Assembly (NCBI GenBank): GCA_963721365.1
Contig: CAVRJE010000016.1
Coordinates: forward strand, 6,701 to 70,700
Length of the DNA: 64,000 nt
Source of the DNA: an uncultured Actinomycetota bacterium
GTDB lineage: Bacteria; Actinomycetota; Thermoleophilia; RBG-16-64-13
Direction: 5' to 3'
Shown: piece after piece, positions 60,747 to 60,937 of the stretch
How the letters are laid out: each line of letters opens with the position of its first letter
How positions within the stretch are numbered: position 1 is the first letter of the stretch
The notes under the pieces: generated by a model
The model's input: the letters and a program-made list of their open reading frames with translations, nothing else
The model's database searches: none
What the model was told of the DNA's origin: nothing
Position numbers and translations under genes: made by a program

Positions 60747-60774
60747 TTGACTGGCGCGCGAACCTGAGTAGAAT
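60747..60774 (+). promoter_or_regulatory. Promoter of orphan sRNA candidate
   Basis: TTGACT, 16 nt, TAGAAT. The divergent tRNA-Gly has an extended -10 TGGTAGAAT on the other strand near 60633-60641. Confidence 0.5.
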
Positions 60775-60780
60775 ATCTAC

Positions 60781-60937
60781 CAGAGTCCCGAGAGTTCAGA
60801 CGCAGCATCTGAGGAGCTTACAAGGGGACCCGCGGAGGAAACGCGAAGGTAAATGATCGCGGAGTACAGCGAAGCGGGAACGAAGTAAGAGCTGATGAAG
60901 GATGAAAAGCGAGTTCACTCGGGGCTCGCTTTTTTTG
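60781..60937 (+). ncRNA. Orphan structured small RNA candidate (~155 nt)
   Basis: Bounded by its own promoter and terminator, with no plausible ORF and several stable helices (see findings). The downstream gene is convergent. Confidence 0.45.
60905..60937. terminator. Bidirectional Rho-independent terminator (sRNA candidate and mutM)
   Basis: AAAAGCGAG-loop-CTCGCTTTTTTT: A-tract, 6-bp stem and T7 tract, giving a U-tract on both strands. Lies 52 nt after the mutM stop. Confidence 0.6.

Follow-up and report, generated by a model that had tools for sequence, protein, structure and literature searches.

An abundant rod-shaped RNA of uncultured Thermoleophilia: gene, fold, distribution and possible function

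What is carried by the short non-coding stretch that separates a tRNA-Gly gene from a convergent mutM gene in an uncultured member of Actinomycetota? We addressed this in a 64,000-nucleotide (nt) stretch of contig CAVRJE010000016.1 (GCA_963721365.1), which was analyzed as a whole and is called here the window; positions are those of the window, on the + strand unless stated. A preliminary description, made by reading the sequence, had pointed to an orphan of about 155 nt bracketed by a promoter and a terminator, with several helices that could be paired by hand. We found that positions 60782 to 60936 (+) are a genuine free-standing gene for a structured non-coding RNA, with a sigma-70-type promoter and an end at a U tract. 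The exact ends of the RNA are predicted ones, and the features that delimit the gene are the following:

60747-60752 (+), -35 hexamer TTGACT, from the promoter scan
60769-60774 (+), -10 hexamer TAGAAT, from the promoter scan
60782-60936 (+), RNA gene of about 155 nt, with the start placed by the promoter spacing and the end by the U tract
60930-60936 (+), U tract (T7), read in the sequence and found by the terminator scan

A free-standing gene for a structured RNA

The promoter first recognized by eye (TTGACT-16-TAGAAT, 60747-60774) was recovered by a scan that returned 2 promoter-like sites against 0.3 expected. For terminators, the scan found one hairpin with a T run (60904-60934) against 0.9 sites expected, and by itself this site is not above chance. 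The support of the gene beyond chance comes from the relatives and not from the single window copy. Among the distinct copies with enough upstream sequence, 78 of 85 show the pattern TTGNNN-N15-19-TANNNT, with the -10 hexamer ending 6-9 nt 5' of the terminal helix (P1), and both hexamers are all that the relatives conserve upstream of the RNA gene. At the other end, a run of at least 4 T begins 0-5 nt 3' of P1 in 64 of 85 copies, and at least 6 T are found within the 12 nt after P1 in 75 of 85. The comparison with relatives by BLASTN that had been proposed in the preliminary description confirmed the conservation of the region: a search of 40 relatives recovered the element from each of the 24 genomes that belong to this family, and gave no match at a meaningful E-value in the 16 from other families of the class. 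The matches run from about 60781 to about 60935-60940 (query ~42 to ~196-201) and not beyond, so that conservation coincides with the predicted transcript. An own promoter, an end at a U tract, conservation confined to the transcript and evidence from RNA libraries (see below) are all found here, as is usual for free-standing genes of bacterial small RNAs (sRNAs).

The minimum-free-energy fold of positions 60781-60937 (-50.1 kcal/mol, z = -2.43, equaled by 3 of 200 shuffles) includes the 10-bp helix between the two ends (60783-60792 with 60918-60927) that had been paired by hand. The folding energy of a single sequence is suggestive, short of decisive. Covariation was evaluated in a MAFFT alignment of 84 distinct copies, using as controls shuffles and partners slid by 1-3 columns. 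In this alignment, the six helices P1-P6 are paired in 92.7% of their cells, and changes on both sides are seen at 23 of 38 pairs, with 215 double-change cells against 54 +/- 10 in the shuffles (0 of 500 reach the observed number) and 23-45 in the slid controls; the compensatory changes sought since the preliminary description are therefore present. A second, wider alignment comprises 64 sequences of three lineages and was fitted to the covariance model, hence leaning towards that structure; in it, double-change cells number 443 against 141 +/- 13.5, with both sides changing at 33 of 38 pairs. The fold supported by covariation is one long, irregular and unbranched hairpin, a rod composed of these parts:

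60783-60792 (+), P1 5' strand GAGTCCCGAG, pairing with 60918-60927, paired in 100% of the 84 copies
60918-60927 (+), P1 3' strand CTCGGGGCTC, with covariation in both alignments
60794-60797 (+), P1 extension, 5' strand, pairing with 60913-60916, from both alignments
60913-60916 (+), P1 extension, 3' strand, from both alignments
60801-60803 (+), P2 5' strand CGC, pairing with 60909-60911, 99.2% paired and nearly invariant
60909-60911 (+), P2 3' strand GCG, shared with the 5' arm of the local terminator hairpin
60806-60810 (+), P3 5' strand CATCT, pairing with 60900-60904, 5/5 pairs changing on both sides
60900-60904 (+), P3 3' strand GGATG, with covariation
60816-60821 (+), P4 5' strand GCTTAC, pairing with 60885-60892 around a 2-nt bulge, 4/6 pairs changing on both sides
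60885-60892 (+), P4 3' strand GTAAGAGC, with covariation
60829-60833 (+), P5 5' strand CCCGC, pairing with 60874-60878, 5/5 pairs changing on both sides, 97.1% paired
60874-60878 (+), P5 3' strand GCGGG, with covariation
60834-60841 (+), 5' side of a purine-rich internal loop, GGAGGAAA, nearly invariant in the conservation line of the alignment
60862-60873 (+), 3' side of the same loop, GAGTACAGCGAA, with AGTAC (60863-60867) nearly invariant in the conservation line
60842-60846 (+), P6 5' strand CGCGA, pairing with 60857-60861, 5/5 pairs changing on both sides, 97.8% paired
60857-60861 (+), P6 3' strand TCGCG, with covariation
60847-60856 (+), apical loop AGGTAAATGA, with a conserved AAA core in the alignment
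60904-60934 (+), local terminator-like hairpin of 13 pairs, from the scan, an alternative to P1, the P1 extension and P2

Within P1, compensatory changes occur at 2 pairs of the 84-copy alignment and one-sided changes at the others, while P1 and its extension change on both sides at 10 of 14 pairs in the wider alignment. Just the outer two pairs of the extension are Watson-Crick in the window copy, and in f6 (a second carrier family of the same class, Thermoleophilia; f1 is the window genome's own family) the extension is a continuous helix. P2 is nearly invariant, and covariation is of little information there. One P1 pair is U-G in 60 of 84 copies, and such frequent U-G pairs indicate an RNA made from the + strand. 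The most conserved unpaired residues are GGAGGAAA (60834-60841) and AGTAC (60863-60867), which flank P6. The motifs GGAA[AC]...A[GU]UAC are present in this order in 50 of the 64 members of the wider alignment and in 0 of 5 members from NC10 (Methylomirabilota). Their arrangement fits the rules of an E-loop (bulged-G) motif, which the GGAAA/AGUAC loop may form.

Not all of the helices paired by hand belong to this fold. The AGCTTAC/GTAAG helix is P4 and shows compensatory changes, with AGCTTAC at 60815-60821, one base off the 60814-60820 first given. The hairpin TTCAGA/TCTGAG (60795-60813) is present as written, without covariation beyond the controls, and the letters read as two tandem modules are actually the two strands of P5 and P6 with the intervening internal loop. 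Taken jointly, the hairpin, the modules and the terminator stem have 16 double-change cells in the 84-copy alignment against 10.7 in shuffles, with 11-36 in the slid controls.

Carriers, copies and abundance

A covariance model (R1), which gives 183.5 bits to the window copy, detected the RNA in 25 of 25 genomes of f1 and in 23 of 24 of f6. No member was detected in the other sampled families (f2 0/26, f3 0/25, f4 0/23, f5 0/12, f7 0/11) under strict filters that may miss weak relatives. Carriers have from 1 to 7 copies, some of them arranged in tandem. The window genome has two, and the second (G000:C28:147434-147590 (-), the same as L030:1998-2154) is about 83% identical to the first and scores 155.4 bits with R1. 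It sits between a divergent open reading frame (ORF) of 387 amino acids (aa) and a convergent nitroreductase gene. In genome G012, three copies with the same core were found (C6:2214799-2214955, 2218373-2218529 and 2265014-2265170), two of them 3.6 kb apart, in what looks like a recent segmental duplication.

Searching one genome per species with the exact pattern of the two ends returned 83 stretches, mostly from metagenome-assembled genomes (MAGs) labelled Thermoleophilia, Gaiellales or Actinomycetota. Five of them are in Methylomirabilota/NC10 MAGs or in MAGs grouping with these, having identical ends and an interior that cannot be aligned; P1 is thus identical in two phyla and the interiors are different. 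A broader covariance model (R2) matched 18 of 151 sampled genomes of the phylum Methylomirabilota and 13 of 151 sampled Actinomycetota. The weak R2 matches in Actinomycetota come from four further families; on inspection, every one of them shows the same terminal helix between a promoter and a U tract, and the folded ones are rods. Among the distant promoter-bearing members that were folded, 12 of 17 form a single hairpin closed by the same terminal helix, with z from -3.4 to -8.4 (mononucleotide shuffles). In NC10 genomes, we observed two unlike members of about 150 and 185 nt lying some 700 nt apart (L088:1491-1658 and 2368-2554 (-); L073:1491-1639 and 2306-2492 (-)).

A pattern scan of metagenomes gave at least 120 stretches. 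The 80 loci inspected hold 83 pattern matches, a mixture of true members and chance matches within coding sequence, and for this reason they were used for the diversity of members and not for counts. A contig labelled 'Bathyarchaeota' (L121), without a promoter and with 13.5 bits over half of the model, was treated as a chance match.

The RNA is very abundant in environmental RNA libraries. Six RNA libraries contained a small share of the words of the locus, and the assembled contigs of four of these RNA runs, from four different studies, were mapped at a minimum of 85% identity, many of these contigs coming from relatives. In three runs, 152, 186 and 61 contigs mapped to just the tRNA and positions 60788-60931, with a summed contig depth over the RNA of 14,961, 37,304 and 9,667 against 201, 178 and 126 over the tRNA. 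In the same runs, the spacer and mutM had a depth of 0, save for two edge bins with 1.6-1.7. The fourth run, from soil, yielded 23 contigs, and depth over the RNA was at most 40.5 against 908 over the tRNA. DNA carry-over would hardly explain a depth that, in three of the four studies, is 50-200 times the one over a conserved tRNA. Adapter junctions were found in the contigs at 60789-60801 and 60923/60924, although they cannot define the ends of the RNA.

Possible function and its rivals

The Fpg/MutM gene (60989-61816 (-), from Pfam) is convergent with the RNA gene and is followed by argS, which agrees with the earlier view that the RNA is not a 5' leader. This orientation is the common one: in a survey of 98 copies, with crude ORF calling, the nearest downstream ORF runs against the RNA gene in 58 and in the same direction in 31, and 9 were unscored. 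Since most copies face a convergent gene, the RNA would act in trans. No protein neighbor common to the lineages was found by Pfam among 79 flanking ORFs.

We suggest, with a probability of about 0.45, that the RNA is a stable scaffold or decoy that binds a candidate protein partner. A sigma-70-type promoter close to the consensus would set the start of transcription 0-2 nt 5' of P1, and the transcript would fold into a single long, purine-rich and irregular hairpin from P1 to P6. Because the U tract comes 0-5 nt after the 3' strand of P1, this helix, or in the window lineage the local hairpin on the same 3' strand, would end transcription there. In the finished RNA, the 5' and 3' ends would be locked together, which may protect them from end-dependent nucleases and allow the RNA to accumulate. 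The terminal helix and the purine-rich internal loops, the E-loop-like GGAAA/AGUAC among them, are nearly invariant and may offer the binding surfaces for a partner, most likely a protein. Purines make up 66% of the window copy, against 48% of the whole window. We infer from this that the RNA would scaffold or titrate its candidate partner, with the several gene copies supplying the dose.

Several observations weigh against this proposal. No partner was found: the neighbors vary by lineage, neither CsrA (PF02599) nor TROVE/Ro (PF05731) occurs in the 25 genomes of f1 (0/25) or the 24 of f6 (0/24), and Hfq was not found in the window genome (86.5% complete). The purine-rich, Shine-Dalgarno-like loops would suit an RNA partner equally, and a terminating helix with about 120 nt enclosed in it would be unusual. 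The E-loop assignment comes from motif rules, not from the output of a tool. The contigs from the RNA libraries carry no strand or true ends, and their depth is a rough level; as the flanks of relatives are unmappable at the 85% threshold, the zero depth of the flanks is weak evidence. Finally, in f6 a second copy lies close upstream of a lipoprotein gene (see below), and for this reason some members may act in cis.

Two systems with known protein partners resemble this RNA. The Y RNAs, which go with Ro60 (Rsr), pair their two ends in a basal helix of conserved sequence, vary in the interior, finish in a U-rich 3' tail and have several copies in some bacteria; this RNA resembles them in all of these features. 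Given the absence of TROVE/Ro from the sampled genomes of both carrier families and of any Rfam match to Y RNA, a Y RNA was rejected. CsrB, RsmY and RsmZ are multi-copy, abundant, GGA-rich and have their own promoter and terminator, all of which this RNA has as well, but many of its GGA motifs are in the internal loops of the rod and not in hairpin loops. A trans-acting RNA or protein sponge, as preferred in the preliminary description, is still the best class of explanation, but a sponge of CsrA was discarded because both carrier families are devoid of this protein. In families without the RNA, CsrA was found in 17 of 26 (f2), 12 of 12 (f5) and 10 of 11 (f7) genomes. The two are no clean complement of each other, since f3 has neither (CsrA also 0/25), and in f4 the RNA is in 0 of 23 and CsrA in 2 of 23.

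The partner could also be another RNA. In this explanation, which we regard as unlikely, Shine-Dalgarno-like loops (GGAGG, GGAG, AAGGA) of a base-pairing sRNA or sponge would titrate or regulate pyrimidine-rich partners. The candidates are 16S rRNA, through its anti-Shine-Dalgarno end, a different sRNA with C-rich loops, and sites in mRNAs. The location of the GGAG/GGAGG motifs in conserved internal loops favors it, as do the many gene copies and high abundance, which sponge RNAs share. Purine richness also speaks for it, as a comparable fraction (0.50-0.67) is kept across the 64 members of all lineages even with their differing interiors. On the other hand, conservation is highest in the terminal helix, which is double-stranded, and not in a single-stranded seed. 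The complementarity to the 16S tail does not go beyond GGAGG (judged by eye), and three GGAG in 155 nt are mildly above a rough expectation from composition of about 1.

It is rather improbable that the RNA is a regulator of the 6S/Ms1 kind, which would dock on RNA polymerase (holoenzyme or core) and sequester it, as a second one beside the canonical 6S RNA. The resemblance is in the general design: a rod of some 150 nt that has internal loops and is closed by a helix of the 5' and 3' ends, expressed from its own promoter, highly abundant, and in both cases possibly in more than one copy. According to PMC9130861, Ms1 is structurally related to 6S RNA, binds the core of RNA polymerase and is widespread in Actinobacteria. 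However, the 6S model (RF00013) gives no match here at E up to 10, and the genome has its canonical 6S elsewhere (G000:C23:99959-100114 (-), 63.5 bits, cut-off 46.4), with an unlike sequence. This RNA also lacks the large central bubble of 6S, as its loops have 6-12 nt. Ms1 was set apart by the search criteria given in PMC9130861 (intergenic regions of >300 nt, synteny with HAD-hydrolase/oxidoreductase), which do not fit this locus, and not by a model.

A regulator in cis, the second reading of the preliminary description, is highly improbable. A ligand would there govern the choice between P1 and the terminator, and thereby read-through, antisense into mutM/argS or into downstream genes. The competition between the terminator and the end helix does exist in the window copy as a thermodynamic alternative. 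The two stems use a common 3' strand and are mutually exclusive. Enforcing the terminator hairpin gives -45.4 kcal/mol against -50.1 for the rod, which is more stable by 4.7 kcal/mol; the hairpin alone has -16.2 kcal/mol, and at equilibrium the pair probability is 0.99 for P1 and 0.002 for the terminator stem. The logic of a switch did not survive. The T run begins 2 nt beyond P1 and directly adjoins the hairpin, so the same U tract follows both and neither is an anti-terminator. The stem of the local hairpin shows no covariation in the 84 copies, and it is absent in the f6 and NC10 relatives, where P1 is directly followed by a U-rich tract. With both stems abutting one U tract, and with P1 and the U tract alone in those relatives, there is no on/off switch. 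The local hairpin of this lineage may be read as an aid to termination and not as half of a switch; what holds of the intrinsic terminator first proposed is the existence of the hairpin and T run, against its lack of covariation and its chance-level frequency.

The genomic context has points on both sides of this cis explanation. The 31 copies with a same-strand ORF downstream and the second copies of f6 agree with it, while it is opposed by the 58 that face a convergent gene and by the lack of a common function of the downstream genes. No multi-helix junction and no pseudoknot were found, and the signs of a riboswitch or leader, namely functionally related genes on the same strand and terminator/anti-terminator conformers, were not found either. 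Ligand-controlled read-through is thus left without support. As for f6, in 12 of 20 loci (E up to 0.04) a divergent second copy comes about 80-170 nt after the first, each with its own promoter (L137:2208-2659 (-); also L135, L136, L138-L143, L145, L146, L148 and L149). A clear U tract is lacking in this second copy, and 16-30 nt separate its end from a gene for a lipoprotein of about 200 aa (with a lipobox and a weak AMIN-like domain); the copy may be a leader or be processed from the mRNA. The lipoprotein gene is confined to f6; it was rejected as the partner because it occurs in 19 of 24 genomes of f6 and in 0 of 25 of f1.

That the element is not an RNA gene at all, but a small-protein gene or an inverted repeat of mobile DNA, is largely refuted: its sole frame (11 codons from an ATG in the apical region, 60843-60878) is intact in 45 of 84 copies, without a start codon in 20, cut short at 3 codons in 3, missing from several f6 copies and not discernible by eye in those of NC10, with substitutions that preserve base pairs and not codons; and the several copies per genome, patchy distribution and terminal repeat identical in two phyla, which would suit a DNA repeat, are opposed by the U-G pairs (A-C mismatches on the other strand), the lack of a transposase gene beside the copies examined, and just 3 matches among 2.9 million viral contigs, by which a phage origin was also discarded. 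The intactness of the frame is probably a by-product of RNA conservation, so the stretch has no credible ORF, as first noted. What remains of the probability falls to some explanation outside those named.

Known families and a possible wider class

The RNA matches no family of Rfam 15. At the gathering score, the search of the whole window gives no match to it, and relaxing the limit to E up to 10 over 60600-61000 (401 bases) adds just chance-level matches to mir-2058 and STnc40; the impression that no riboswitch, 6S or signal recognition particle (SRP) RNA was at hand is borne out by this search. For SRP RNA (RF00169), which was rejected, the copy of the genome is at G000:C18:60899-60998 (-), with 70.1 bits. 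In the f6, NC10 and distant members, Rfam likewise matched nothing save the genome's own 6S locus, used as positive control, and, in the flank of an f6 locus (L137:586-1002 (-)), a cspA thermoregulator below threshold (50.5 bits, cut-off 78). Readings as hammerhead or kink-turn were discarded for want of conservation of the CUGAUGA stretch. The literature searched gave no paper on this RNA, the supplements of large motif-discovery papers, which might contain it, being outside the search. What is new is the RNA family; the newness of its mechanism is a separate matter.

Among RNAs of Actinomycetota, raiA is similar in being free-standing, trans-acting, highly abundant and without an established function. 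As described in PMC10861870, raiA has about 200 nt, six major paired regions and two pseudoknots, with an E-loop in part of its members, unlike the single unbranched rod of about 150 nt of this RNA. Its model (RF03072) has no match at the window and in 0 of 151 genomes of the class, and the sequences are unlike, so raiA was rejected. In the phylum, 56 of 151 genomes match that model, two of these (G395 and G450) being unpublished, with one match per positive genome sampled against the 1-7 copies of this RNA. In four Actinomycetota checked (G345, G359, G386 and G399), raiA and a distant member of the present family are at different loci. The position between comFC and raiA is not the one of the window copy, ComFC-like genes being found just near NC10 copies. 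Phosphoribosyltransferase-domain genes occur near these NC10 copies, some of them with a partial ComFC-like match pattern, and raiA RNA likewise tends to adjoin comFC.

We put forward tentatively, as a possibility that we hold to be short of probable, that this RNA is the founding and best-alignable branch of an undescribed, widespread class of very abundant rod RNAs, which would contribute the RNA component of a new ribonucleoprotein. Such a class would be defined by the near-invariant terminal helix GUCCCRAG/CUYGGGRC with a short extension, by transcripts that start at this helix and finish in a U tail, and by an interior that is purine-rich and variable, and would range over deep-branching Actinomycetota and Methylomirabilota. 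A terminal helix identical in two phyla around an interior beyond alignment points to one specific recognition event, which is testable. If true, the standing of the ribonucleoprotein would be comparable to that of 6S with RNA polymerase, Y RNA with Ro, or SRP. Strong covariation, several copies, very high abundance and no established function form a rare profile among bacterial RNA classes; the examples usually given, OLE and raiA, have both opened new biology. The carriers are uncultured lineages of sediment, soil and bioreactors, without genetics, and the covariance model now permits the annotation of this RNA, its counting in metatranscriptomes and its use as bait for a partner.

In the window, the neighbors of the RNA gene are the tRNA-Gly upstream (60535-60607 (-), from the Rfam scan), a CsoR-type repressor, mutM and argS (from Pfam). 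About 55 nt separate the RNA gene from the stop codon of mutM, and the hairpin and A/T runs of this region (60904-60991) could serve as a terminator for both directions of transcription. A second tRNA gene is located at 26485-26557 (-), with 64.8 bits.

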